In this document: positions 1 to 13,407 of the stretch, one piece after another
Numbering within the stretch: the first letter of the stretch is position 1
Layout: every line of letters begins with the position of its first letter
DNA from: Wenzhouxiangella sp.
GTDB lineage: Bacteria > Pseudomonadota > Gammaproteobacteria > Xanthomonadales > Wenzhouxiangellaceae
DNA: 64,000 nt
NCBI GenBank assembly: GCA_046540955.1
Contig: JBKHEF010000013.1
Span: forward strand, 1,104 to 65,103
Reading direction: 5' to 3'
Notes under the pieces: model-generated
Told to the model about the DNA's origin: nothing
Seen by the model: the letters and a program-made list of their open reading frames with translations, nothing else
The model's database searches: none
Program-made: the position numbers and the translations under genes

Positions 1-874
1 AGGCGCGGCTGGCGCTTTTCGGCAGCATGTGCTCATACAGGTGCGCCGGGTCGGCGTTGGAGATCATGGCCTCGCACGAGCGCGAGCTGCCGTCGGCCAG
101 GCGCACGCCGGTCACCCGGTCGCCCTGCGTGGAGATCGACTCGACCGTGGTGTTGAGCTCGACGCGGATGCCGACATCGTCCATCAGCTGGTGCAATGCA
201 TCGACCAGCGCGCCGGTGCCGCCCATGGCAAAGTGCACGCCATGGGCGCTTTCCAGGAAGTGAATCAGCCCGTAGATGCTGGTCGTATCAAACGGGTTGC
301 CGCCCACCAGCAGCGGCTGGATGGAGAAGGCCTGGCGCAGGTGGTCGCTTTTCAGGCGCCGGCTGACCATCTGCCAGACCGTACGCCAGGCGCCCAGCCG
401 GGCCAGGTGCGGCACCTGGCGCAGCATGAAACCCATCCTGTGGAACGGGGCGTCGGAGAGCTGGGTGAAACCGACGTCGTAGAGCCGACGGGAGTCTTCC
501 AGCAGGCGCTGGTAGCCGGCCACGTCTTCAGGCTGGATCCGCCCGATTTCGGCGAGCGTCTGTTCCATGCTGCCGCCGTAGTCAAAGCGCTCGCCATCGG
601 CGAACTCGAAGCGATACCATGGATCCATCGGTACCAGTTCGACGGCATCGGCAAGCTTCCGACCGAACAGGGCGAACAATTCCTCGAACAGAAATGGGGC
701 GGTCAGGACCGTCGGGCCGGCGTCGTGGCGATAGCCGTCTTTCTCAAACACCTGGGCGCGCCCGCCGAGCCGTGCACAGCGATCCAGCAGGGTGACGTCA
801 TAGCCCTTGGCGCGGGCCCGCAAGGCGGCCGCCATGCCGCCAAAACCGCCACCGATGACGATGACTCGATTCAT
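1..874 (-). CDS. crtI: Phytoene desaturase (5' part, runs off left edge)
   Basis: Not in the ORF track; manual minus-strand translation gives MNRVIVIGGGFGGMAAALRARAKGY...GGRAQVFEKDGYRHDAGPTVLT...QPLLVGGNPF...GVHFAMGGTGALV (FAD-binding GxGxxG and CrtI motifs). ATG overlaps the crtE stop (ATGA). Confidence 0.93.
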   Translation of the reverse strand, partial: MNRVIVIGGGFGGMAAALRARAKGYDVTLLDRCARLGGRAQVFEKDGYRHDAGPTVLTAPFLFEELFALFGRKLADAVELVPMDPWYRFEFADGERFDYGGSMEQTLAEIGRIQPEDVAGYQRLLEDSRRLYDVGFTQLSDAPFHRMGFMLRQVPHLARLGAWRTVWQMVSRRLKSDHLRQAFSIQPLLVGGNPFDTTSIYGLIHFLESAHGVHFAMGGTGALVDALHQLMDDVGIRVELNTTVESISTQGDRVTGVRLADGSSRSCEAMISNADPAHLYEHMLPKSASRA

Positions 875-1779
875 GCATTCTCCTTGCAGGGCAGCGCTGC
901 GTGCAGCTTGAGCGCGGTTTCGGCCAGCAGCCGACCCGAGTTGCAGGGCAGCGTTCGCGCCAGTGCCGCGGTCTGGCCGAAGTGCTTGCCGGCGCGCTTG
1001 GCCACGATCGAAGCCGGCTCGGTTTGCCCGGCAGCCTCGACGACGCGCACGGCGTTGAGGGCATTTCTGGCCCGGTCGGCCTCCAGGTCGCGCAGATCGT
1101 CGAACATCTGGTAGCCCAAAGAAAACAAGCGGCCGCAATCTTTGGCCAGCGGATCGAACTCCGCGTGTCCGGCCAGGTGCAGGGCAAAGCTCAGCGGCAA
1201 AGACAAAAGCGGGCCGGACTTGCCGGCCGCGATCGCTTCGTAAGACGCCAGGTCGGCGACGTTTCGACCTTCGCCCAGGTCTGCATCCTGGCCACGGATC
1301 AACAGTGTCACATGATTGTGCAAGTGAGGCGCCAGCGCCGATGTTGCCGGGGAGGTGGCCAGGGCGGCGTAGGCCGCCGACAGCAGCAGATCGCCGGTGC
1401 AGATGGCCACGGCCTCGCCATGCGCGGCCCAGACGGCCGGCCGGCCACGCCGAAGCCGATCGCGGTCCTGCACGTCGTCGTGCACCAGCGAGGCGTTATG
1501 GACCAGTTCCACGGACGCGGCGCTGGCGACGATGGCGGCCGGCTGAACGTCCAGCGCCAGTCCGGCCTCGATAGCCAGTCGCGCCCGGAATCGGCCGCCA
1601 CCGGCTTGAAGATGGTCCAGCGCGGCCTGCTGGGCCGCGCTGGAGGGGTTGCCGGACACGAGATCCTGCATGCGGCACTCGACCCGATCGAGCAGGGTCA
1701 AGGCATCGGCCGGCGCGGGGGCAGGCAGGGCGCCTGCGCCCGGGCCGGGCCTGTGCAGAGCATTTGCCTGGAGGCTCAT
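871..1779 (-). CDS. crtE: Geranylgeranyl diphosphate synthase (polyprenyl synthetase)
   Basis: FARM LVHDDVQDRDRLRRG and SARM YQMFDDLRD; located between rhodopsin and crtI. Confidence 0.88.
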   Translation of the reverse strand: MSLQANALHRPGPGAGALPAPAPADALTLLDRVECRMQDLVSGNPSSAAQQAALDHLQAGGGRFRARLAIEAGLALDVQPAAIVASAASVELVHNASLVHDDVQDRDRLRRGRPAVWAAHGEAVAICTGDLLLSAAYAALATSPATSALAPHLHNHVTLLIRGQDADLGEGRNVADLASYEAIAAGKSGPLLSLPLSFALHLAGHAEFDPLAKDCGRLFSLGYQMFDDLRDLEADRARNALNAVRVVEAAGQTEPASIVAKRAGKHFGQTAALARTLPCNSGRLLAETALKLHAALPCKENA

Positions 1780-1805: not shown

Positions 1806-2561
1806 TCAGGCCGTAGCCGGGCTTTGCGACTTGCGAAGCGCGATCATGAAGATCAGTACACCAAAGAAGGCCTTGGCGACGACATCAGCGATCGTGTAGC
1901 CGACTTCGATCACGACGGTGGCGGTACCGCCATCCATGGGGATCACAAACGGCAGGAAGTACACAACCGGGTAGAAACTCCACGACAGAACCACGACCCA
2001 GCGCGCCAGATTGATCAGTCCGCGAACTTCGCTGGGCTGGCTGTTGATGGACTCCGACAGGCCGACAAACAGGCTGTAGACGATGTACAGGAACGGAATC
2101 ATCGACAGTGCGCCCCAGATGAACCGGGTGCCGTCGATGCCGCCGGAGACCTCGCCGGGATAACCCAGCAGAATCATCAGCGCGGCTGCGCCGCCGAGCG
2201 CCACGCTCTTGCGGATCGTTTCCGATTTGGTCAGGCTCATGACCAGAATCAACTCGACCAGCAGCAGCGGGACGGTCAACAGCCAGTCGACGTAGCGGTA
2301 GGCCTGGTTGAAGGCGACACCGGTCAGTTCGACGCTGCCGTCCATGACGGTGAACGCACTTTCCCAGCTGGCGAAAATTCGCAGGTAGTGATAGCCGGCG
2401 ATGAAGGTCACCAGCCCGGTGATGATCACGGCGAGCTTGTATTTCGGGGCGATTTGCGAAAGGCCTAGCCAGTAAAAAAGAGTCGCGGCGAGCATCGCCG
2501 CAATGCCAAACGAGAACGCGTTGTAGATCAGTTGATATTGTCCAAAGGATAAGGCTTCCAT
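1806..2561 (-). CDS. Xanthorhodopsin-type microbial rhodopsin, DTE outward proton pump
   Basis: Helix C AYRYVDWLLTVPLLLVE (D-T-E), helix B YHYLRIF His, helix G ADVVAKAFFG retinal Lys. Start reassigned to MEALSF at 2561, preceded by a GGAGA RBS. Confidence 0.95.
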   Translation of the reverse strand: MEALSFGQYQLIYNAFSFGIAAMLAATLFYWLGLSQIAPKYKLAVIITGLVTFIAGYHYLRIFASWESAFTVMDGSVELTGVAFNQAYRYVDWLLTVPLLLVELILVMSLTKSETIRKSVALGGAAALMILLGYPGEVSGGIDGTRFIWGALSMIPFLYIVYSLFVGLSESINSQPSEVRGLINLARWVVVLSWSFYPVVYFLPFVIPMDGGTATVVIEVGYTIADVVAKAFFGVLIFMIALRKSQSPATA

Positions 2562-2741
2562 TGATTTCTCCCAGTCGCGGTGCATTGTGACGCTGGACGG
2601 GCCTTGTTCGATCCTTGGGGAAACAGGCGCAGCCAGCAAGTAGAAAGTCTGGTGGGATCTTTCAGCGATGGGAGACTACGCCGCGAATGTGTAGCTTAAG
2701 TGAATCTAACTTCTTGAAAATGAAGTCAAAATGCTCACATC

Positions 2742-2784: not shown

Positions 2785-5043
2785 TTATGGTTGCGGGTTG
2801 GCCTCAAATTGCAAATGCCGGTGCAAAAAGCGGGCGATCGTTTCGTAGACGTGCACGCGCTGGTTGTCGCCGGTGATGCCGTGTTTTTCGCCCGGATAGG
2901 TCATCAGGTCAAACTGGATGCGCGCTTCCTGCAGTTTTTGCATCAGCATGGTCGAGTGGGTGAACAGCACGTTGTCGTCGGCCATCGGGTGGATCAGCAG
3001 CAGGGGGTCGCTGATCCGGTCGGCCCAGCTCAGTACATTCCCCTTCCGATAGGCTTCGGGCTGGGCCTGCGGGGTGCCGAGGTAGCGCTCGGTGTAATGG
3101 GTGTCGTAGAGCGCCCAGTCGGTGACCGGGGCCACCGCGACGCCGGCGGCAAAGTTGCCCGGCTGCTGGGCCAGGGCCATCAGCGCCAGGTAGCCGCCGT
3201 AGCTCCAGCCGAAGATGCCGATGCGTTCAGGGTCGACGAAAGACTGGCCGCGCAGCCAGTCCAGGCCGATCATCTGGTCGATGATTTCGACCCGGCCCAG
3301 CTGGAGATGGGCTGCATCCTGAAAGGCCTTGCCCTGGCGGACGACGCCGCGGTTGTCGAGTGAGAAAACGATGTAGCCCTGGCGGGCAAAATACTGGTCG
3401 ATCAGCGCCCTGCGCCCCCAGCTGTCGGTGACCAGGCGATGGGTCGGGCCACCATAGACATGGACCAGCACGGGGTAGCGCCGTTGCGGATCAAAGCCGG
3501 CCGGCCGGATCATGCGGTAGCGCAGGGCCTGGCCATCGGGGCCGATCAACTGGCCGAACTCGGTGGCTTGATGGGCGGCCCGGTAAGGCGCGTAGGGATG
3601 GTCGTCATCGAGCTGGTTTTCGACCAGCCATGCCAGGCGCTCTCCGTCGGCCGAGTGCAAGGACAGTTGCTGGGGCTGCCGGGTGCTGGAATAGGTGTCG
3701 ACATAGACCCGGGCGGCGCGGTCCATGGTCACCTCGTGCCAGCCCGGCCGGCGCGAGAGGCGGGTGACGTTTTCAGGCGTTCGGGTCAGCAGGGACTGGC
3801 GGTAGAGATGTTTTTCTTCCGGTGAAACTTCCGCGGCGGTGAAATAGACCAGCCCGAGTTCTTCGTCCACCCCGACCAGTTCGTCAACCGCCCAATCCCC
3901 GGCGGTCAGGCGTCGGATCAGGCCACCGTCCAGGTCATGCAGGTACAAATGCCGGAATCCGTCTTGCTCGGACGACCAGATGAAGGCATCGAGACCATCG
4001 AGGAAGTGCAGGTCGTTGTGCAGGTTGATCCAGGTGTCAGAAGTCTCGGTCAGAACCACCTGCGCAGGGCCGCCGTCAAGCGTTGCGACGACCAACTCCA
4101 GGGTTTGCTGGTCCCGGCTCTGGCGCTGAAAGCTCACACGCTCGCCGTCGGGCAGCCAGGCAACGCGCGGGATGTAGATATCGTCATCTGCGCCCAGGTC
4201 GATGAAGCGGGTGCTGTCATCGGCCAGGTCGATCACGCCCAGGCGGTAGCTGACGTTGGGCGTGCCGGTGAACGGATAGCGTTGCTCGACCAGAGTGATT
4301 TGATCAGCTTCGATCTCGTAGCGGCGGGTTGGCGCGATGGCCGACTCGTCGGTGCGCAGGAACGCGATCCGGCGGCTGTCGGGCGACCACCAGAACCCGC
4401 GCGAGCGGTCCATTTCTTCCTGAGCGATGAACTCGGCCAGACCATTGGCCACGACCTCGTCGCCATCCTCGGTCAGCGCACGGACCTCGCCCGATTCCAG
4501 ATCCGCCACCCATAGGTTGCGCTCGCGCACAAAGGCCACGAAGCGCCCGTCGGGCGAGATGCGCGGGTCGATATCCGCTGCCGCGGCGTCAGTGACCTGG
4601 CGGACCTGGTGCTCTTCGGCCGCCAGATCAAGCAAGTGGATATCGCCGTCCAGGGGAAAGATCAGGTAGCGACCATCGCCTGACCAGCGGTACTCGACGA
4701 TGCCGCTCAAGCCCGAGATCCGGGCCCTCTCCCGCCGGGCCTGCTCGGCAGCGGATAGTTCTCCTTCCTCGGCGACGATACTGTCGGCAGCCACCAGCAG
4801 GCGGGTTTGCTTATCGGCGATGTGGTATTCCCACAGGTCGAGGCGGTCGCGGTCTTCCTCGCTGGCGCGCAGAAAGGTCACCCGGTCGCCGGCCGGTGAC
4901 AGCTCGGCCTGACGCAGGCTGGCTCCCGTCAGATCGGGTGATGCGAAGATGCGCTCGATGGTCAGGTCGGGCTGGGCCGGCGCCTGGACCGACCAGAGCA
5001 GCGCTGCAAGAACAGGCCAGAGCCTGGGGGAAAGAAAAGGCAT
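2785..5043 (-). CDS. Dipeptidyl peptidase IV (S9B), secreted
   Basis: Signal peptide, DPPIV beta-propeller (AQEEMDR..GFWWSPD), GWSYGG nucleophile, ADDNV Asp, EKHG His. Confidence 0.93.
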   Translation of the reverse strand: MPFLSPRLWPVLAALLWSVQAPAQPDLTIERIFASPDLTGASLRQAELSPAGDRVTFLRASEEDRDRLDLWEYHIADKQTRLLVAADSIVAEEGELSAAEQARRERARISGLSGIVEYRWSGDGRYLIFPLDGDIHLLDLAAEEHQVRQVTDAAAADIDPRISPDGRFVAFVRERNLWVADLESGEVRALTEDGDEVVANGLAEFIAQEEMDRSRGFWWSPDSRRIAFLRTDESAIAPTRRYEIEADQITLVEQRYPFTGTPNVSYRLGVIDLADDSTRFIDLGADDDIYIPRVAWLPDGERVSFQRQSRDQQTLELVVATLDGGPAQVVLTETSDTWINLHNDLHFLDGLDAFIWSSEQDGFRHLYLHDLDGGLIRRLTAGDWAVDELVGVDEELGLVYFTAAEVSPEEKHLYRQSLLTRTPENVTRLSRRPGWHEVTMDRAARVYVDTYSSTRQPQQLSLHSADGERLAWLVENQLDDDHPYAPYRAAHQATEFGQLIGPDGQALRYRMIRPAGFDPQRRYPVLVHVYGGPTHRLVTDSWGRRALIDQYFARQGYIVFSLDNRGVVRQGKAFQDAAHLQLGRVEIIDQMIGLDWLRGQSFVDPERIGIFGWSYGGYLALMALAQQPGNFAAGVAVAPVTDWALYDTHYTERYLGTPQAQPEAYRKGNVLSWADRISDPLLLIHPMADDNVLFTHSTMLMQKLQEARIQFDLMTYPGEKHGITGDNQRVHVYETIARFLHRHLQFEANPQP

Positions 5044-5184
5044 GTTGCGGAGGGTCCGGAAAATCTGGTGTCGGTACTATTGTGCGCAGCCAGAATCCAT
5101 TTTGGCAAATGCCCCTGCGCATCTGCCGCATGCAGCAGCTGGTTTGCGCGCTCACCCAAAACCTTATGTTTCAGGCGCGATCTT

Positions 5185-6549
5185 CTACACTCGGTCATGC
5201 ACCTGCGGCAGCGGATGACGGGTGGTGATGGTTTCCAGGCCATGGGCATTCGGGCCGCGTTCGGAGCGGTATAGCAACCACGAAAACAGCAGACCCAGGG
5301 CAGCCAGGGTGGTATAGAACCACATGCCGGCCGCGTAGCCGGCCGGATTGTCGGGTGCGGCGTTGAAGGTGTCGTTGAGCAGGCCGATGATCGGCGGAAC
5401 AATGGCCCAGCCCAATTGCTGGCACAGCGTCATCATCGCGTACGCCGAGCCCAGGCGACGTTCGTCGACGATGTAGGCGACCGACGGCCACATGACGGCT
5501 GGAATCAGGGCAAACACCGCGCCGAGCAGCAGCATCACGATCAGCAGGGTCAGCGGCACCTGGCCCGAGCCTACGAACGGCACGGTCAGCGTCATGTCCG
5601 GGCCGGGTGGTGCATAGGTGACGATCAGGAACAGCGGCAGCATGACCAGCGAACCTGTGGCCATGAAGAACGAACGTTTGCCGACCCGGTCGACCCACAG
5701 CCCGAAGATCGGCGTGATGAACATGGCCGCCAGCGGCAACAGGCTCGACAGCAGGCCGGCGGCCTGGCGCTCCAGACCGTGGGCCTGCTGGAAGTAGTCG
5801 ATGGCGAAGGTGCGAAACGGAAACACGGTGGAATAGAACACCACGCACAGCGCGACCACGTACCAGTAAGACGGGCTGAAGGCGAACAGATCACGGACGC
5901 TCAGCTTCTCGTGGTCGCCGCCTGGTCCAAGCTGATAGTTGCGCTCGGCCCGCCTCTCCATCAGCCAGTAGAGCAGGGCGGCGGTCACGGTGATGCCGCA
6001 CACCGCGGTGGCCAGCCACAGCGGGTCCTGCCAGTTGGCATACAGCGGGGTGGCGAAACCGGTCGACCAGTCGGCGGTGGTTGAACCGAAGCGTGAAATC
6101 GACAGGTTGATGCCGAAGGCAAAGCTCAGTTCCTTGCCCTTGAACCACTTGGCAATCGCCGTGGTGGCGGCCACGATCAGCGGTTCCGAACCCAGGCCCA
6201 GCATGACGCGGCCGGCCAGGATGGTCTCGTAGCGGGGGGTCAGCGCGGTCAGTGCGGCGGCGGCCAGGCAGACCAGGGCAAACACGAAAATGGCCCGCCG
6301 CGTACCGAAGCGATCGATGATCACGCCGCCGGCCAGCAGGATCGTCAGCGCGGCCAGGTTGTAGCCGGTCGACAGCCAGCCGATCTGCTGGTAGGAAAAA
6401 TCAAGCTGTTCGCGCATCAGGTCGATGACCGGCCCGAGCGCGTCGTAGACGTAGTAATTACCGAACATCGCCAGGCTGACGAACACCAGCACCACCCAAC
6501 GATAGGTCGGTGGCGGCGGCAGGGAATCCAGGCGAGGGTCGTGGGTCAT
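5185..6549 (-). CDS. MFS transporter, MFSD1-like
   Basis: About 12 TM segments, motif A GVIIDRFGTRR, N-terminal MFGNYYVYD resembling MFSD1 TM1. Confidence 0.85.
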   Translation of the reverse strand: MTHDPRLDSLPPPPTYRWVVLVFVSLAMFGNYYVYDALGPVIDLMREQLDFSYQQIGWLSTGYNLAALTILLAGGVIIDRFGTRRAIFVFALVCLAAAALTALTPRYETILAGRVMLGLGSEPLIVAATTAIAKWFKGKELSFAFGINLSISRFGSTTADWSTGFATPLYANWQDPLWLATAVCGITVTAALLYWLMERRAERNYQLGPGGDHEKLSVRDLFAFSPSYWYVVALCVVFYSTVFPFRTFAIDYFQQAHGLERQAAGLLSSLLPLAAMFITPIFGLWVDRVGKRSFFMATGSLVMLPLFLIVTYAPPGPDMTLTVPFVGSGQVPLTLLIVMLLLGAVFALIPAVMWPSVAYIVDERRLGSAYAMMTLCQQLGWAIVPPIIGLLNDTFNAAPDNPAGYAAGMWFYTTLAALGLLFSWLLYRSERGPNAHGLETITTRHPLPQVHDRV

Positions 6550-6934
6550 GCGCGCAGAAAGTTCGGTCAGCGGTCGCTTTTCCAGCGCAGTGTATACCGG
6601 GCAACTCGGGCGCGCGCCCGCACCATGTTCCAGCGCAGCCGGTCGATCAGGGCCAGGGCAGCCTGGCGGGCATCGACGAGGGGCTGGAGTATGCGATGAC
6701 GCGGGCCTGTTTCGCGACGACTAGAACCGAAACAGCGGGTATTGGCTTCGCGCTTGTTCCAGCAGGCCCTGGTCGTCGTCGGCGGCCTGACAACGATCAG
6801 GGCAAACAGCCAGTCACACAAGAGTTCCTTAAGTGGCATTGTCATGCACTCTGCCGGAACCGACAATCCGACCCAACGAAGCGGGCGAGTCGTGGCTTTG
6901 AGTGCACAGCGTCGGCCCGTTCTCGCCAGCTTGG

Positions 6935-7954
6935 CTATCTGCGATGCGGCGCTGAAGCCTCCGGGTCACACCAGTGGGCGGTCAGCAGGTAGTCGATGGT
7001 CAGGTTGTCGAACAGGGCCGAGCCGGTCGAGATGAACAGCACCGGTTCGGGGCAATCTTTCGGATGTTGCAACAGATGGCCAAGATCGACGATGCGGTGC
7101 CGATCCAGAAGGCTTTCGGAGTCGAAGCGCTTGAGATCGCCCCAGTGTCTGCTGTCATGGGTGTCTACACAGACATTGTAATGAGCGAGCACCTTGGGAT
7201 CGAGTTCGCGTTGCCAGTCGGTGTCGGCGCCGACGCTGATGACGATGCGTGGTTGGTAATCGGAGGCGTCAAACAGCGGCGACTCGCTGTCGGTAGCCAG
7301 GACCAGCGCGTCGGGCCGGCTGGATAGATCTGCGGCCTCGAACGTGCCCGTTTCCAGTTTCGGATTGTGCAGGGAGAGTTGTTCGGCGGCCAGGTGCGCC
7401 CGGCCCGGGGCGCGGTCGCTGAATTCGATCCGGCGGACCGTATCCAGCGTGGCAGCATAGCAGGCCGTGTAGAAGCCGACCCGACCGGCGCCGATGATGG
7501 CCAGGGTTTCACAGTTGGGCAACAGCAGGCGCAGACCCGTGACCGCGCAGGCACCGGTGCGCGCCGAGGACAGAATGCAGCCGGCAAAGCCGGCCTCGAT
7601 GAAGTTTTCGGCGCTGTGCAGGGCAAACGCCTTGCCAACACTGATTTCACCGGGCACGATCTGCCGTGGCCAATTGGTGCCTATGATCTTGACCGTCTTG
7701 CGAACCCGATCCGGGAATCGAACCACGCAGGGCATGACCCTGAAATCGGAGCGCTCTCCGGGATCGATGAACACTGACTTGGCCGGCAACTCGAGTTGCG
7801 CATCGCCGCGGGCAATGGCCTTCAGAGCCGCCAAAAGATGGTCCAGGTAGGCCGCAGGTGCAGCGGTCAGGGCCGCGTGCACCGCCGCATCGTCGAAGAA
7901 CACGTAGGGTTCAGGGTTGATGCGAAGTAGTTGATTGAGGGCGTTGTCGATCAT
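6935..7954 (-). CDS. Ornithine cyclodeaminase / mu-crystallin family protein (divergent)
   Basis: DFRVMP, LSSARTGA, IIGAGRVG Rossmann, ISVGAD, RELD, FISTGSALFD. Confidence 0.85.
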   Translation of the reverse strand: MIDNALNQLLRINPEPYVFFDDAAVHAALTAAPAAYLDHLLAALKAIARGDAQLELPAKSVFIDPGERSDFRVMPCVVRFPDRVRKTVKIIGTNWPRQIVPGEISVGKAFALHSAENFIEAGFAGCILSSARTGACAVTGLRLLLPNCETLAIIGAGRVGFYTACYAATLDTVRRIEFSDRAPGRAHLAAEQLSLHNPKLETGTFEAADLSSRPDALVLATDSESPLFDASDYQPRIVISVGADTDWQRELDPKVLAHYNVCVDTHDSRHWGDLKRFDSESLLDRHRIVDLGHLLQHPKDCPEPVLFISTGSALFDNLTIDYLLTAHWCDPEASAPHRR

Positions 7955-10403
7955 TGCGGTCTGATCTCCTGGTCAGCGCGGTTTGAGGCTCGAAGACCGC
8001 CAGCGCGACCTCTGGCGGCGCCAGCACGAGCACAAGATCGCCGTTGACTGCCTGATCCAATCCGGTCCGGATGGCCTGTGCCCGGTCGGCGAATGTCGTG
8101 ACCTGGCTGGGCAAAGCTCCTGCGGCAAGTACTTTCTGGCGAAAGTAGTCCAGCATCTTTTGCTGCGGGTTGGGACCGGCCCACTCAGGATTACGCTCGA
8201 TGTAGCCGGTGTAGCCGCTGAGCGTGATGGTGGCAAAGCGTTGCGCAAATGCACCGGCCAGCTCATCGATGTGGCAGCGGTGGCGCGCGCCGATGGTCAT
8301 GCAGACCAGGTGCACCCGGCCCGATACCTGCAGTCGATCAACTACTTCGAGCACGCGCTCGACGCCGTCAGGATTCTGGGCAAAGTCACTCAATACCGTG
8401 AACGGGTAGCCGGTAATGAAGTTGTAGCGACCCGGGTTATCGGCAGTGGAGTTGCTAAAGCCGGCAAGCGCCTGGCGGATGCGCGCCGGGTCGATGCCGA
8501 GGGCCCAGGCGGTGGCTGCTGCGAAGCGTGCGTTGAAGCAGTTGCTTTCCAGCAAGCCTTCCATGGTGGCTGGAATTTCAGCCAGAGCCATCAGCGGCGA
8601 CTGCTGTTCGCCCCGGGCCAGTATCAGCCAGTCACCATCCGAACGCCGGTCGACGAAGACGGCTTTTCCGCCCTGGCGGCGATGGGCCAGCAGTTCGGGA
8701 TGCTGCCCGGATTTGGCAACCAGTACCAGGTGCCGGCAGCGCGCGCGAGCGCGCATGTTCAGACACAACGGGTCATCAGCATTGAGCACGATCGACCGCG
8801 TGGCGCGGCCGATCAGGCGTCCTTTGACCTCGGCCATGGCCTCGAGGCTGTCGATGCCGTCTACGCCCAGGTGGTCTGCTCTAACGTTGAGGCAGGTGGC
8901 CACTTCGCAGTGGTCGAAGGCGGTGCCGGTCTTGAGCAGGCCGCCGCGAGCCGTCTCCAAAACCGCCGCGCGAGTGCGGTTGTCGGCCAGCACCATTGCG
9001 GCTCCCGTGACCCCGGCCACATCGCCGTCGATGATACGCTCGCCGCCCAGGAAAGCGCCCTCGGTGGTGGCCAGGCCGACCGCGTCGAACGCCTGTGCCA
9101 GAATGCGAGCGAGCATGCGGCAGGTGGTGGTCTTGCCGTTGGTTCCGGTAACCGCCACGAGCGGTATCCGCGCTCGTTGGCGGTCGGGAAACAGGGTGTC
9201 AACCAGGCAAGCGGCTATCGACCTGCGTCTGGCATGGTCGCCATGGCGCATCAGGTCAGGATCCGGCAGCACGTTAGTGATCACGCAGTTAGCTGCTTCG
9301 GCCGGCCCGGCCGGGTCGACGACGGCCATGTCTACGCCGGCCAGAACGGGCAGCTTGCACACGGCCGCGGCGCGCTCGGCCAGTTCGCGGATCGGTTGGG
9401 AGATCCGGTCGAGGACATCCTCGGTATATGGCGCGCTGGAGACGGCTCGAAGCCGCCCGCCGATGACCAGACAGCGATAGTGCTGCCCTGGTGGCCAGGA
9501 CTCGACCCAGACCCGTCGATGCGGGCCGGCCAGGACATCGAAAGCCGCCGCGACTTCACTGGAGCGGTGCAGCGGGCCCAGCGTATCGGGCGTATTTGAA
9601 AGATGGGGAAACCGCGGCTTGTACAGCGTCCGAACCGCCACCGGATAGCCCAGGCGCTCGGCGGCCCGGATCGCCCGCCGGGCAGAGTTCTGGTTGCCAA
9701 ATTCCAAATCCTGCCGTGGCAAGGGCAGGCCGGCCTGCGCCAGTCTCGGCATCAGCTCGGCCCGGCAGCGAATGGATTCCAGCAGGTGTTCGCTGGCACC
9801 TTCCGGCATGGCCCCGGCCACCAGGCGACGACGACATCCATGGCCAAGCTGGAGCAGGCCCACGCGGATCGGACGGTCCGGCGGCGACGGATCGAAAGGC
9901 TCCTGGTCAAGCCAAAAGGTCGGCAGGCCGGCAGCGTGGGCTGCCTCGCGCACCAGCTTTGCATCGGCATCAAGGGTCCGCGCGGATGCAAAGCGCAAGA
10001 AAGCGGCTGCGCGGTCGAGCAGATCGTCAGGTTCTGAGTTTGTGTCGATGGACAGCAGTTCTGCAGCCAGTTCCCCGGCCCGCAGCGCGCTCAGGCTTTC
10101 CTCCACCGGAAGGGCAATTGCCCAGAGGCACGAACGCCGCTCGACGGTTGTCGTGCCCGCGCCATGGCCGGCCGCCTTGAGCAGGCAGGCCACCAGGCGG
10201 CCGAAAAACTCCATCGGTTCTTCACGATCAGTCGCTGATTGTCCGATGGCCCGCACACCGCACTGTTCCAGCCGCCTATCCAGCTCATCGGCCCGCTTGA
10301 TCGCTGCTTCCAGCAGCGGTCTATTCAGCTCAAACCACGCCACCGGCGGCGGCCCGAAGCTGGAATATCCAGAAACGATGTGACTTGAAAGGATGATTGA
10401 CAC
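7911..10403 (-). CDS. Cyanophycin-synthetase-like protein: degenerate ATP-grasp plus intact Mur-ligase domain
   Basis: LLQLGHG, LGYPVAV, YRCLVIGG, GVDM; then VAVTGTNGKTTT P-loop, VLETARGG, DHLG, NADD, PGRYN, DFAQNP. Confidence 0.85.
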   Translation of the reverse strand: MSIILSSHIVSGYSSFGPPPVAWFELNRPLLEAAIKRADELDRRLEQCGVRAIGQSATDREEPMEFFGRLVACLLKAAGHGAGTTTVERRSCLWAIALPVEESLSALRAGELAAELLSIDTNSEPDDLLDRAAAFLRFASARTLDADAKLVREAAHAAGLPTFWLDQEPFDPSPPDRPIRVGLLQLGHGCRRRLVAGAMPEGASEHLLESIRCRAELMPRLAQAGLPLPRQDLEFGNQNSARRAIRAAERLGYPVAVRTLYKPRFPHLSNTPDTLGPLHRSSEVAAAFDVLAGPHRRVWVESWPPGQHYRCLVIGGRLRAVSSAPYTEDVLDRISQPIRELAERAAAVCKLPVLAGVDMAVVDPAGPAEAANCVITNVLPDPDLMRHGDHARRRSIAACLVDTLFPDRQRARIPLVAVTGTNGKTTTCRMLARILAQAFDAVGLATTEGAFLGGERIIDGDVAGVTGAAMVLADNRTRAAVLETARGGLLKTGTAFDHCEVATCLNVRADHLGVDGIDSLEAMAEVKGRLIGRATRSIVLNADDPLCLNMRARARCRHLVLVAKSGQHPELLAHRRQGGKAVFVDRRSDGDWLILARGEQQSPLMALAEIPATMEGLLESNCFNARFAAATAWALGIDPARIRQALAGFSNSTADNPGRYNFITGYPFTVLSDFAQNPDGVERVLEVVDRLQVSGRVHLVCMTIGARHRCHIDELAGAFAQRFATITLSGYTGYIERNPEWAGPNPQQKMLDYFRQKVLAAGALPSQVTTFADRAQAIRTGLDQAVNGDLVLVLAPPEVALAVFEPQTALTRRSDRNDRQRPQSTTSHQP

Positions 10404-10482
10404 GAACCGATTTTATAGCGTTTGCCCGGGCTCGGGCACAGCGCTGGGCTATGCGGATCCTTGAGCCGGCGGGACTGCTTTT

Positions 10483-12762
10483 TCAGCGCGAAACCAGGGT
10501 TATGCGGCTGGCCGTGGTGCGTTCTATCGCCTCCCGGGACCACGGCACGGTCCAGGGTTCGCCGTTGAGGAAATCACCCAGGAAGCTGTCGAAATGGGGG
10601 CTGAAGGGGTTGCCGGACTGGCCCATGGCCAGGTTCAGGGTGAAGCTGTCGGGATCATTCCAGTCCAGCACGAAGCGCATCGAGGCCCCGGCCCGGGCCT
10701 GCCAGTTGGCGGTTTCGGTATCGAAGCGGCTGAAGGTGGCGTTCAGGCTGGCGCTGTCGCCGCCGAAGGGAAACGGGCCACGGCTCAGGTTCAGCCAGCG
10801 GTCGAGCAGCGCGGACCGGGCCAGCGGGTGGCGAACGTGCAGGGTCTGGATCATCCCCAGCGGTCGGGCACCGGCCCGTAGCGCATCGTCGAGCGCCAGG
10901 GCGGCGGCTTCATCGCGGTCACGGGCGGCAAGGTCGGGTGCAGTTTCGCCATCGCGCAGCCAGCGGTCGGTGAGCGGGCGCAGGGTGCGCCAGTCCGGGC
11001 GAGCGGATTCGTGGCTCGAGTCGAACAGCGCGCGTGGCAGGTAACCCCACCAGCGCGCGAACAGGCCGGCAACATCCGATTCGATCCGCATGTCGCCGTC
11101 CCAGCGGCGCAGGTCATCGGCGATCACGCTGCGCCCGCTGCGCTCGGCGGTCTCGGCCAGCCAGTCCTTGAAGGCCATGGCGCGGTCGGAGGTCTGATCG
11201 AGCTGGAAGCGGGTCATGTCGGCCTGGTCGAAGCGCTCCTGGCTGGTCAGCAGTTCGGTGGCGCGGCGGATTCGGTCCTGGTAGTAGAAACCGGGCAGGG
11301 CATAGGGCCAGTCTGTTCCGGCCGCCAGGTTGTTGGCATTGGCCAGCCAGCCCTGTGGGGGGTCGAGCGCAAACGGCCGCGCTGCCGGTGGCTGGAAGCC
11401 GCGCCAGTGATAGCGCGGATCGGCCCCGTCGAGCACGCGGAAGAATTCCCGATGCTCGCGCACAGGGACCGGGGTGGACTGTACGTAGCCTATATGACCG
11501 TTGCGGTCGGAATAGCTCCAGTTGACCGACAACGCACCCATGTCCCCGGCAGCGGCCCGAAACTGGGCAAAGTTTTCGGCCCGGTTGATCGCCAGTCCCT
11601 GGCCGATCAGCGGTGCGATCGGCAGCTCGAAGCCGGCCCAGCCCAGGACCAGCACTTCGCTGGCATTGGCCTCGATGACCTTGCCGAACGGCGCATATTG
11701 GTAGGTCTGGACCTGGGCTGTTTCCTGGCCGCGCACAGTGATGCGTTCTTCGCGTTCCAGCAGGCTGACCCAGCCTTCGGGACCGAGGACGCGATCGGGC
11801 TGGTCCGGGTTGCGCTTGAGGCGATACAGCTCGAACAGGTCGACCGGCGCCACGGTGAACGCCCAGGCGATGCGGCCATTGTGGCCCATGGCCACGAACG
11901 GCAGGCCGGGCGCGGTCACGCCGACGACATCGAGTGACTCCTCCGAGTGCAGCCCGGCGGCATACCACAGGCCAGGCGCGGTGTTGAATTCCAGGTGTGG
12001 GTCCGAGGCATGCAGGGCCGCGCCGCTGGTCGAGTGCTGCGGTGCGATCACCCAGGTGTTGGAGGCTTCGGTCAGGCGCAGGGCGGGAATCGTGGTCATG
12101 CCGCCGGCAGTCAGCTGTTCCAGCCACCTCCCGGCCTCGGGACCGAAGCTTTCGGTCACGGCCAGGTAGGCATCGCGGATCTGCTGGACCAGGGTGAGGG
12201 GATAAAAGGTCTGGTAGTAGGCGATGCTCAGCACATCGGCCCGGGTCCAGGGTCTGGGCCGGTGCCCAAGCACAACAAACTCGGGTGGCAGTCGATCGGT
12301 GGTTGCGATGCGCTGGTTGACCCCGGCCAGGTAGGCATCGAGCAGGTCAGCGGTCGCGGGATCCAGCTGTGGCGGGTCTTCCGCCATCCGGCGGGCAAAG
12401 CCGAAACCGCGATGCAGGACATCAAGCTCGATGGCCGCAGGACCGAAAAGTTCGGCCAGTTCGCCGGCGGCCATGCGCCGGATCAGTTCCATCTGGAACA
12501 GTCTTTCCCCGGCATGCAGCCAGCCCAGTGCTATCAGCACATCGCGATCGGTCTGGCCGTGAATTCGTGGAATGCCGCGGTCGTCGAACAGGATTTCAAC
12601 CTGATGGCCCAGGCTTTCGACCCGAACCTGGCCCGCGTAGGGCATCTGCGACTGGGCCAGCCACAGCCGTCCGCCGAACCAGGCGGCCGCGAGCAGGACG
12701 AACAGACTGATCAGGCTGACCCAGAAGCTGCGGGCAAGGATGTTGCGGGTGCCGGTGCTCAT
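10483..12762 (-). CDS. Penicillin acylase family Ntn-hydrolase (S45), N-terminal membrane anchor
   Basis: DDRGIPRI, LHAGERLFQMELIRR, beta-chain SNTW nucleophile, ASDPHL, GHNGRIAWAFT, LANANN, GQSGNPFSPHF. Start reassigned to MSTG at 12762. Confidence 0.9.
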   Translation of the reverse strand: MSTGTRNILARSFWVSLISLFVLLAAAWFGGRLWLAQSQMPYAGQVRVESLGHQVEILFDDRGIPRIHGQTDRDVLIALGWLHAGERLFQMELIRRMAAGELAELFGPAAIELDVLHRGFGFARRMAEDPPQLDPATADLLDAYLAGVNQRIATTDRLPPEFVVLGHRPRPWTRADVLSIAYYQTFYPLTLVQQIRDAYLAVTESFGPEAGRWLEQLTAGGMTTIPALRLTEASNTWVIAPQHSTSGAALHASDPHLEFNTAPGLWYAAGLHSEESLDVVGVTAPGLPFVAMGHNGRIAWAFTVAPVDLFELYRLKRNPDQPDRVLGPEGWVSLLEREERITVRGQETAQVQTYQYAPFGKVIEANASEVLVLGWAGFELPIAPLIGQGLAINRAENFAQFRAAAGDMGALSVNWSYSDRNGHIGYVQSTPVPVREHREFFRVLDGADPRYHWRGFQPPAARPFALDPPQGWLANANNLAAGTDWPYALPGFYYQDRIRRATELLTSQERFDQADMTRFQLDQTSDRAMAFKDWLAETAERSGRSVIADDLRRWDGDMRIESDVAGLFARWWGYLPRALFDSSHESARPDWRTLRPLTDRWLRDGETAPDLAARDRDEAAALALDDALRAGARPLGMIQTLHVRHPLARSALLDRWLNLSRGPFPFGGDSASLNATFSRFDTETANWQARAGASMRFVLDWNDPDSFTLNLAMGQSGNPFSPHFDSFLGDFLNGEPWTVPWSREAIERTTASRITLVSR

Positions 12763-12840
12763 GGGCGGCAAGAATAGCGGATCATGCCCGCCAGGTTTGC
12801 CTATAATTTCGCAACTTCCCTGCCCGATACCGAGTCCGCC

Positions 12841-13407
12841 ATGCCCCGAGTTGCCGAAATCAAGCGCGGCCAGGTGGTCGAACACGATGCCACGGTCTAT
12901 GCCGTGCGCCAGATCGACCGCTCCGCTCCCACCGCCCGTGGCGGCGGCACCCTGTATCGTTTCAAGCTCGAATCCATTCCCGGCGGCGACAAGCGCGAGT
13001 TGACCTTCAAGGGCGATGATGTGCTCAAGGAAGCCGACCTGGTCCGGCGCCTGAGCGAATTCTCCTACCGCGATGCCGACGGCTTCGTGTTCATGGACGG
13101 CGAGGACTTCAGCCAGTACGTGCTCTCGGCCGAAGATGTCGGCGATGCCGCCGACTACCTGCTGGAAGGCCAGGATGGGATCTATGTGCTGATCATCGAC
13201 AGCCAGCCGGTGGCCATTCAGCTGCCCCAGTCGGTGGTCCTGGAAGTGGCCGATACGGCGCCGGTGATGAAGGGAGCGACCGCGTCGCGCTCGGCCAAGC
13301 CGGCCCGGCTGGAGACCGGTGTCGACGTGATGGTGCCCGATTACATTACCCCGGGCGAGAAGATCAAGGTCAATACCGAGACCGGTGAATTCATGAGCCG
13401 CGCCTGA
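12841..13407 (+). CDS. efpL: Elongation factor P-like protein EfpL (YeiP)
   Basis: Tip loop APTARG, C-terminal KPARLETG...VPDYI..GEKIKVNTETGEFMSRA. Confidence 0.9.
   Translation: MPRVAEIKRGQVVEHDATVYAVRQIDRSAPTARGGGTLYRFKLESIPGGDKRELTFKGDDVLKEADLVRRLSEFSYRDADGFVFMDGEDFSQYVLSAEDVGDAADYLLEGQDGIYVLIIDSQPVAIQLPQSVVLEVADTAPVMKGATASRSAKPARLETGVDVMVPDYITPGEKIKVNTETGEFMSRA

Follow-up and report, generated by a model that had tools for sequence, protein, structure and literature searches.

A CphA-like ligase and an OCD-family enzyme form a two-gene accessory cassette in Wenzhouxiangella, a candidate system for making an amino-acid conjugate

A stretch of 64,000 nucleotides from Wenzhouxiangella sp. 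(contig JBKHEF010000013.1 of assembly GCA_046540955.1, hereafter the window) carries on its minus strand three co-oriented open reading frames (ORFs), which encode an S45 acylase, a ligase related to the cyanophycin synthetase CphA1, and a homolog of the ornithine cyclodeaminase (OCD)/mu-crystallin family. CphA1 has an N domain, an ATP-grasp (G) domain and a Mur-ligase (M) domain. The three genes had been proposed, in an earlier prediction made from the sequence (the original prediction), to act together as one pathway. Our analysis indicates that ligase and OCD alone make up the functional unit, an accessory cassette of two genes that is self-contained, rare and movable, rather than a trio. 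Both proteins come from known superfamilies. We consider it moderately probable that the cassette combines an NAD(H)-dependent amino-acid step by the OCD with an ADP-forming amide ligation by the M domain of the ligase, giving an amino-acid conjugate; the catalytic activities, the order of the steps, and the identities of substrate and product are all predictions read from the sequence.

The conservation of the ligase/OCD pair was determined from gene neighborhoods. The pair was found in about nine distinct loci and at least four genomic contexts, and in the related loci of the ligase clade the spacing between the two genes ranged, without exception, from an 8-bp overlap to a 7-bp gap. Because this tight adjacency was kept in all related loci, the coupling of ligase and OCD is more than chance. 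In one context, shared by three syntenic metagenome lineages, an alpha/beta-hydrolase gene lay upstream; in another, a 42%-identical ligase homolog stood among unrelated flanks with no candidate partner genes. The third was the acylase and major facilitator superfamily (MFS) surroundings in a Wenzhouxiangella metagenome-assembled genome (MAG) syntenic with the window (L009/L011), and the fourth was shared by a Great Salt Lake MAG and Wenzhouxiangella sp. 15190, with a GCS2 (gshA-like) gene directly upstream of the pair and a PGM gene on its other side. The M-domain tree placed the OCD-linked ligases in one clade (100/100 support), to which neither canonical CphA1 nor the other clades with a dead G domain belonged. 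When presence was scored through the OCD, the pair was detected in three of 25 same-genus genomes (the window genome and 2 of the 24 others) and in none of 16 genomes of other families of the order.

The genes flanking the pair in these contexts were also evaluated as possible members. The window genome has a 74-75% GCS2 ortholog in an Opp-GCS2-PGM setting without the pair, and GCS2 is therefore a backbone gene next to the insertion site, not a third member. The upstream alpha/beta-hydrolase and an aldehyde dehydrogenase were rejected as well, being confined to one syntenic lineage and missing elsewhere. Our literature searches found no account in which an OCD gene is paired with a CphA-like or Mur-ligase gene, and in the portion of a CphA bioinformatics paper covered by a text search there was no relevant passage.

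The ligase is a CphA1 derivative which, judging from its motif pattern and the match of its model to the CphA1 fold, retained the whole scaffold with only the Mur-type site predicted to be alive, the N-domain peptidase and ATP-grasp sites appearing dead. It matched Mur_ligase_M (62.9 bits, cut-off 24) and Mur_ligase_C (47.2 bits, cut-off 28.4) in Pfam, and fell below the CphA1 cut-off of TIGR02068 (393 bits vs 850), with a strong alignment only for residues 327-794. Key positions were read from an alignment of 20 sequences including canonical CphA1 proteins (A1), alongside PDB alignments and published key residues. The motif Cx19HxxEH marks the primer-generating site of the N domain and occurs in 83% of CphA1 sequences (PMC9262961). 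The canonical CphA1 rows of A1 had the Cys and HxxEH, and the whole OCD-linked clade was without the motif. Within the G domain, other sequence replaced the NxNHGRG phosphate loop, in which we take the essential H267 of SuCphA1 to lie; a deletion of about 68 residues took away, among others, the aspartate-binding G-omega loop (N394/S396 in TeCphA1), and T-N-V stood at the Mg site ExN. No ATP-grasp Pfam model matched the ligase above cut-off, whereas true CphA1 proteins are matched by five to eight such models.

The M domain was preserved at nearly all key residues. GTNGKTTT (420-427, window 9123-9146), E483 in ETARGG, D510-H511 in NVxADHLG (SuCphA1 D585/H586), K527, NADD (541-544) and R659/N661 in PGRxN were invariant in A1, and the roles of the M-domain key residues in ATP binding, Mg binding and catalysis, among them the P-loop Lys, the Mg-binding Thr/Glu and the catalytic Asp-His, have been described (PMC9427784, PMC9262961). 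The sole notable change at such a position was Gln676, the equivalent of TeCphA1 H748. In the M lid of the OCD-linked clade, the canonical GDRRDED was changed to GARHRxH, and xxNPE(W/Y), a longer loop, stood in place of RRDDxxRGR. In analogy to the loops with which Mur ligases bind amino acids, these clade-specific charge changes suggest a substrate other than arginine, as a lead rather than a test. The AlphaFold2 (AF2) model of the ligase had a pLDDT (predicted local distance difference test) of 88.7 and a predicted TM-score (pTM) of 0.86, and in Foldseek it matched the full-length CphA1 structures 7WAE, 7LGJ and 7LG5 with query TM-scores (TMq) of 0.71-0.76 over about 910 columns.

The partner is a real OCD-fold enzyme and belongs to an uncharacterised, highly conserved subfamily. 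It matched PF02423 with 47.8 bits (cut-off 24), and its AF2 model (pLDDT 91.8) matched all solved OCD-family structures roughly equally in Foldseek, with TM-scores of 0.72-0.79 at 17-23% identity. None of the NCBIfam equivalogs compared (Pyr2C reductase, LhpI, EutC, SbnB, BhcD and archaeal AlaDH) came near its cut-off, the best being PRK07340 with 62.9 bits vs 266. These comparisons bore out the original description of the OCD as a divergent family member, and the two motifs quoted there were found as SSARTGACA and FISTGSALFD. Across 36 subfamily members (A4), R72, K89 and R132 at the carboxylate-binding positions, GxGxxG at 155-160 (GAGRVG), D180, and D244 of the GAD motif were invariant. The acidic D180 follows the second Rossmann strand, and this placement suggests that the cofactor is NAD and not NADP. 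The signatures of the subfamily were SDFRVMPCVVRFP, GADTDWQRE and STGSALFDNLTIDYL, and its approximately 400 clusters were all unnamed or carried generic family names only. In the related loci the OCD partners were 61-84% identical to that of the window (A2), and the ligases beside them 41-78% (A1), so that the OCD is the better conserved of the two. The window genome had a single OCD-family gene. At one locus (L001:12492-13325) the OCD partner of ligase P0009 was called as 277 aa, its C-terminus ending before the STGSALFDNLTIDYL motif; this copy may be frameshifted or decaying.

More distant relatives of the OCD (41-58% identity) were found in Desulfuromonadaceae, Psychromonadaceae, other Gammaproteobacteria and Burkholderiales, and none had a CphA-like neighbor in the loci examined. 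In 13 of 13 such loci (L015-L020, L022-L025, L031-L033) the OCD gene abutted a convergent gene for a PaaK/F390-synthetase/CapK-like adenylating enzyme, present in one to three copies and often in two or three. The OCD subfamily thus always travels with an ATP-dependent carboxylate-activating ligase of either fold, and this association is our strongest argument for a shared metabolite on which OCD and ligase act. The distant OCD and CapK-like loci look like another uncharacterised biosynthetic module; no PaaK/CapK-like gene of that kind was found in the window genome. A BKACE-GNAT fusion was encoded directly upstream of the distant OCD in L017 and L033, and CysD/CysNC and sulfotransferases (sulfation), glycosyltransferases or a Lys/Arg decarboxylase were encoded near others.

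In the proposed conjugate pathway, only the M domain of the ligase would be catalytic, converting a carboxylate into an acyl-phosphate (ATP to ADP + Pi) that would then be joined to an amine. The NAD(H)-dependent OCD would make an amino- or imino-acid block from a common precursor by imine reduction, amino-acid oxidation or cyclodeamination; a less probable role would be to finish the product rather than supply a building block. Common metabolites would thereby yield an amino-acid conjugate with an amide or isopeptide linkage, different from ordinary cyanophycin. Translational coupling of the OCD to the ligase is likely, since the two genes overlap. Several observations weigh against this proposal. 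The modeled OCD appeared structurally equidistant from reductases, cyclodeaminases and SbnB-type enzymes, so the structure search gave no substrate class, and no substrate could be read from the sequence either. The Gln that replaces His748 of TeCphA1, a contact of the ATP gamma-phosphate, could weaken catalysis. The ligase has kept well-conserved N and G scaffolds, a hint that its substrate may be polymeric or oligomeric and not a small molecule. The link to the CapK-like enzymes is weaker than that to the CphA-like ligase, because those partner genes are convergent and not co-directional.

The relation of the cassette to cyanophycin was evaluated from the other CphA-type genes, three of which were found in the window genome (G000). 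A canonical cphA1 (G000 C5:70662-73445, 927 aa, TIGR02068 1128 bits) was directly followed downstream by a paralog of 552 aa with N and M domains and no G domain (G000 C5:68988-70646), and this tandem was also seen in G001 and G002. The third, with a dead G domain (G000 C67:1128-3608, 826 aa), had no ATP-grasp Pfam match and no OCD, and belonged in the M-domain tree to a clade other than the OCD-linked one; it carried canonical-type M-lid motifs (DYAHNP, acidic loop) and was flanked by NAD-dependent epimerase-like and kinase-like genes. Elsewhere, P0048 (L034:5041-9706, 901 aa, 33% identical) represented a separate CphA-like clade with a dead G domain and no OCD neighbor, and was preceded by a 624-aa protein without a Pfam match. 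The pair itself never adjoined cphA1. It was present in Wenzhouxiangella sp. 15190 (G005/G026, 99% complete), which had no TIGR02068 match above 407 bits, and likewise in two MAGs (G003 and G004) without such a match. As the pair occurs in genomes without CphA1, the cassette appears independent of cyanophycin synthesis, and a dependence on it was weakened above all by the 99%-complete genome.

The same evidence bears on a trans-acting cyanophycin modifier, in which the M-only protein would add a non-arginine residue made by the OCD to the Asp side chains of cyanophycin or poly-Asp from canonical CphA1. The canonical CphA1, its adjoining paralog and the further paralog of the window genome, the CphA1 genes of G001 and G002, and the full CphA1 architecture of the ligase, including N and G scaffolds for polymer handling and tetramerisation, would all suit such a role; the genomes with the pair and without CphA1, the distance of the pair from cphA1, and the altered N-domain motif and charged M-lid surface do not, and we regard the modifier as rather unlikely. 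The dead yet conserved N and G domains could instead be a polymer-holding scaffold for an iterative Mur-type polymerase, similar to PgsB/CapB or FolC, that repeatedly adds one amino acid, possibly the OCD product. Mur-fold enzymes such as FolC and PgsB are capable of iterative action and provide a precedent, and the M-lid motif, being more basic, could accommodate an incoming residue that carries a carboxylate. However, no export, anchoring or depolymerase genes were co-conserved with the pair at its loci, CphA1 M domains are not known to be iterative, and a polymerase of this kind seems markedly unlikely. A broader proposal, which we hold to be quite unlikely, is that the cassette encodes a previously unknown way of making, with ATP and without the ribosome, an amino-acid polymer or isopeptide metabolite: a Mur-site-only, "mirror-image" cyanophycin synthetase, possibly iterative like PgsB or FolC, would carry out the condensation, taking a non-proteinogenic amino or imino acid from the OCD, and the same OCD chemistry would feed PaaK/CapK-like ligases elsewhere. 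If true, it would reveal a widespread and unrecognised "OCD plus ligase" biosynthetic logic.

In the pathway of the original prediction, an unusual amine supplied by the OCD would be ligated by the Mur-ligase domain and the resulting conjugate processed or recycled by the S45 acylase, a scheme compatible with the layout of the locus (Table 1). The co-orientation, the OCD start within the 3' end of the ligase gene with its own AGGAGA site, and the short distance to the acylase, all claimed there, were confirmed in the sequence. The ligase gene runs through its stop codon to 7911 and overlaps the OCD gene by 44 bp; the OCD ATG (7954-7952) follows AGGAGA (7970-7965) at a distance of 10 nt. Only 79 bp separate the ligase GTG (10403) from the end of the acylase gene (stop at 10483), and this GTG matches the start codons of the homologs in the alignment. 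The same three-gene arrangement was also present in one relative. As for co-conservation, on which the prediction depended, the ligase and OCD stayed together and the acylase did not. Of the 25 same-genus genomes, 19 had an acylase ortholog (57-84% identity), whether or not they carried the pair, and only three had the pair; the acylase distribution is that of a genus-wide backbone gene. The pair stood next to the acylase gene only in the window and its syntenic relative (L009/L011), was unlinked to it in G026 (pair on C38, acylase on C11), and had no acylase at its other loci. At its N-terminus the acylase also carries a hydrophobic stretch, an export signal or anchor, and therefore probably acts outside the cytoplasm, while neither the ligase nor the OCD has one and both would be cytoplasmic. 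In addition, a TAxAAT -10-like box was seen about 8-10 nt 5' of the ligase start in the window (10404-10417), in L009 and in L003 (just before position 10001), a weak hint that the ligase is transcribed separately from the acylase. Phyletic distribution and synteny ruled out the acylase as a pathway member, and the three-gene pathway is now highly improbable.

Table 1. Coordinates of the cassette, its domains and its neighbors in the window
Feature	Position	Strand	Basis
S45 Ntn-hydrolase (penicillin/N-acyl-homoserine lactone (AHL)-acylase family)	ORF 12885..10483, likely ATG 12762	-	PF01804
CphA1-derived ligase, 830 aa, GTG start	7911..10403	-	Mur_ligase_M, Mur_ligase_C, TIGR02068
N-domain equivalent of ligase, ~residues 1-160, without peptidase motif	9924..10403	-	A1
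Degenerate ATP-grasp (G) domain of ligase, ~residues 161-405	9189..9923	-	A1, Pfam
Intact Mur-ligase (M) domain of ligase, ~residues 406-806	7986..9188	-	A1
AGGAGA ribosome-binding site of OCD gene, within ligase 3' end	7965..7970	-	read from sequence
OCD/mu-crystallin-family enzyme, 339 aa	6935..7954	-	PF02423
MFS transporter, downstream of OCD	6549..5185	-	Pfam
Dipeptidyl peptidase IV (DPP-IV)/S9 peptidase	5043..2785	-	Pfam

The surroundings of the cassette showed the same pattern as the acylase. The backbone of TyrA, elongation factor P (EF-P), acylase, a variable slot, MFS and DPP-IV genes was present in genomes without the pair; in G010 the slot (L035:6080-9053) held an SBP_bac_8 solute-binding protein and a GGDEF diguanylate cyclase, and in G018 (L037:1515-2964) it was 1.4 kb long, unannotated and without a Pfam match. 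Because the same backbone carries other slot contents in these genomes, the acylase, MFS and DPP-IV genes lie outside the system; they are conserved neighbors of a variable slot that the cassette occupies in the window lineage. The acylase matched PF01804 (Penicil_amidase) with 554 bits over profile positions 1-674 of 675, and was not a PvdQ equivalog in NCBIfam (53 bits vs 950). Its hydrophobic N-terminus, MSTGTRNILARSFWVSLISLFVLLAAAWFGG, begins at ORF residue 42, which places the likely start at the internal ATG.

The non-coding parts of the locus gave little information. No credible riboswitch or other RNA was found in the Rfam scan of 4900-13100, and a scan of the intergenic gaps for consensus promoters and terminators gave nothing informative. 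No Shine-Dalgarno sequence was visible at the ligase start in the window, and the ligase transcript may have a short leader or be leaderless. The spacer between the OCD and MFS genes (6550-6934) was 385 bp long, compared with about 100 bp in L009; it had no Rfam match and no terminator-like site, and contained a possible ORF of 92-99 aa (6567..6866, minus strand). Two neighboring minus-strand genes, one of the bacteriorhodopsin family (1806..2639) and one for a polyprenyl synthetase (871..1779), lay downstream of the DPP-IV gene.

Cyanophycin synthetase is a model of template-free amino-acid polymerisation and a target of biopolymer engineering. The known derivatives of CphA1 are of two kinds, CphA2 with a retained ATP-grasp site, and proteins without the G domain whose genes have remained next to cphA1. 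The OCD-linked clade has kept the whole scaffold with the Mur-type site only, lies away from the cyanophycin genes, and has gained an obligate OCD partner. From this combination a novel product would be expected, along with an M domain of new amine/carboxylate specificity, which could be useful for tailoring cyanophycin-like materials. The roughly 400 unnamed OCD-family clusters also gain a testable context, an adjacent carboxylate-activating ligase, and the record on the acylase, MFS transporter and DPP-IV genes as neighbors outside the system is corrected.

Compared with CphA1 (TIGR02068; 7LG5, 7LGJ, 7WAE, 7LGM and 7LGN), the ligase shares the three-domain N-G-M fold, and its M domain is 35-38% identical with the ATP, Mg and catalytic residues kept. 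It differs in lacking Cx19HxxEH, in the loss of the P-loop, G-omega loop and ExN of the G domain, in the changed M lid, in being unlinked to cyanophycin genes, and in occurring in a genome without CphA1. CphA2 (7TA5, 8FXH/8FXI) is likewise a CphA1 derivative with one of the two ligase sites left, but it has kept the G site with a degenerate M domain, whereas the window ligase has a dead G and a predicted live M site, its mirror image; the structural match of the ligase to CphA2 was also weak (TMq 0.40-0.44). The CphA paralogs with N and M domains (~550 aa) are, like the ligase, M-only relatives of CphA1, but they have no G domain at all, lie beside cphA1 and have no OCD partner; that of the window genome fell outside the OCD-linked clade in the M-domain tree, on a long branch and with an uncertain position. 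The OCD of the window shares its fold with the characterized family, including Pseudomonas putida OCD (1X7D), the LhpI-type Pyr2C reductase (6T3E), BhcD (6RQA), AF1665 AlaDH (1OMO), SbnB (4M54), lysine cyclodeaminase (5GZI) and also CmnK, and has the Rossmann GxGxxG, the Arg/Lys/Arg carboxylate positions and the GAD motif. Unlike these enzymes, it shows only the low identity given above to every solved member, and has signatures of its own and an obligate linkage to a ligase.

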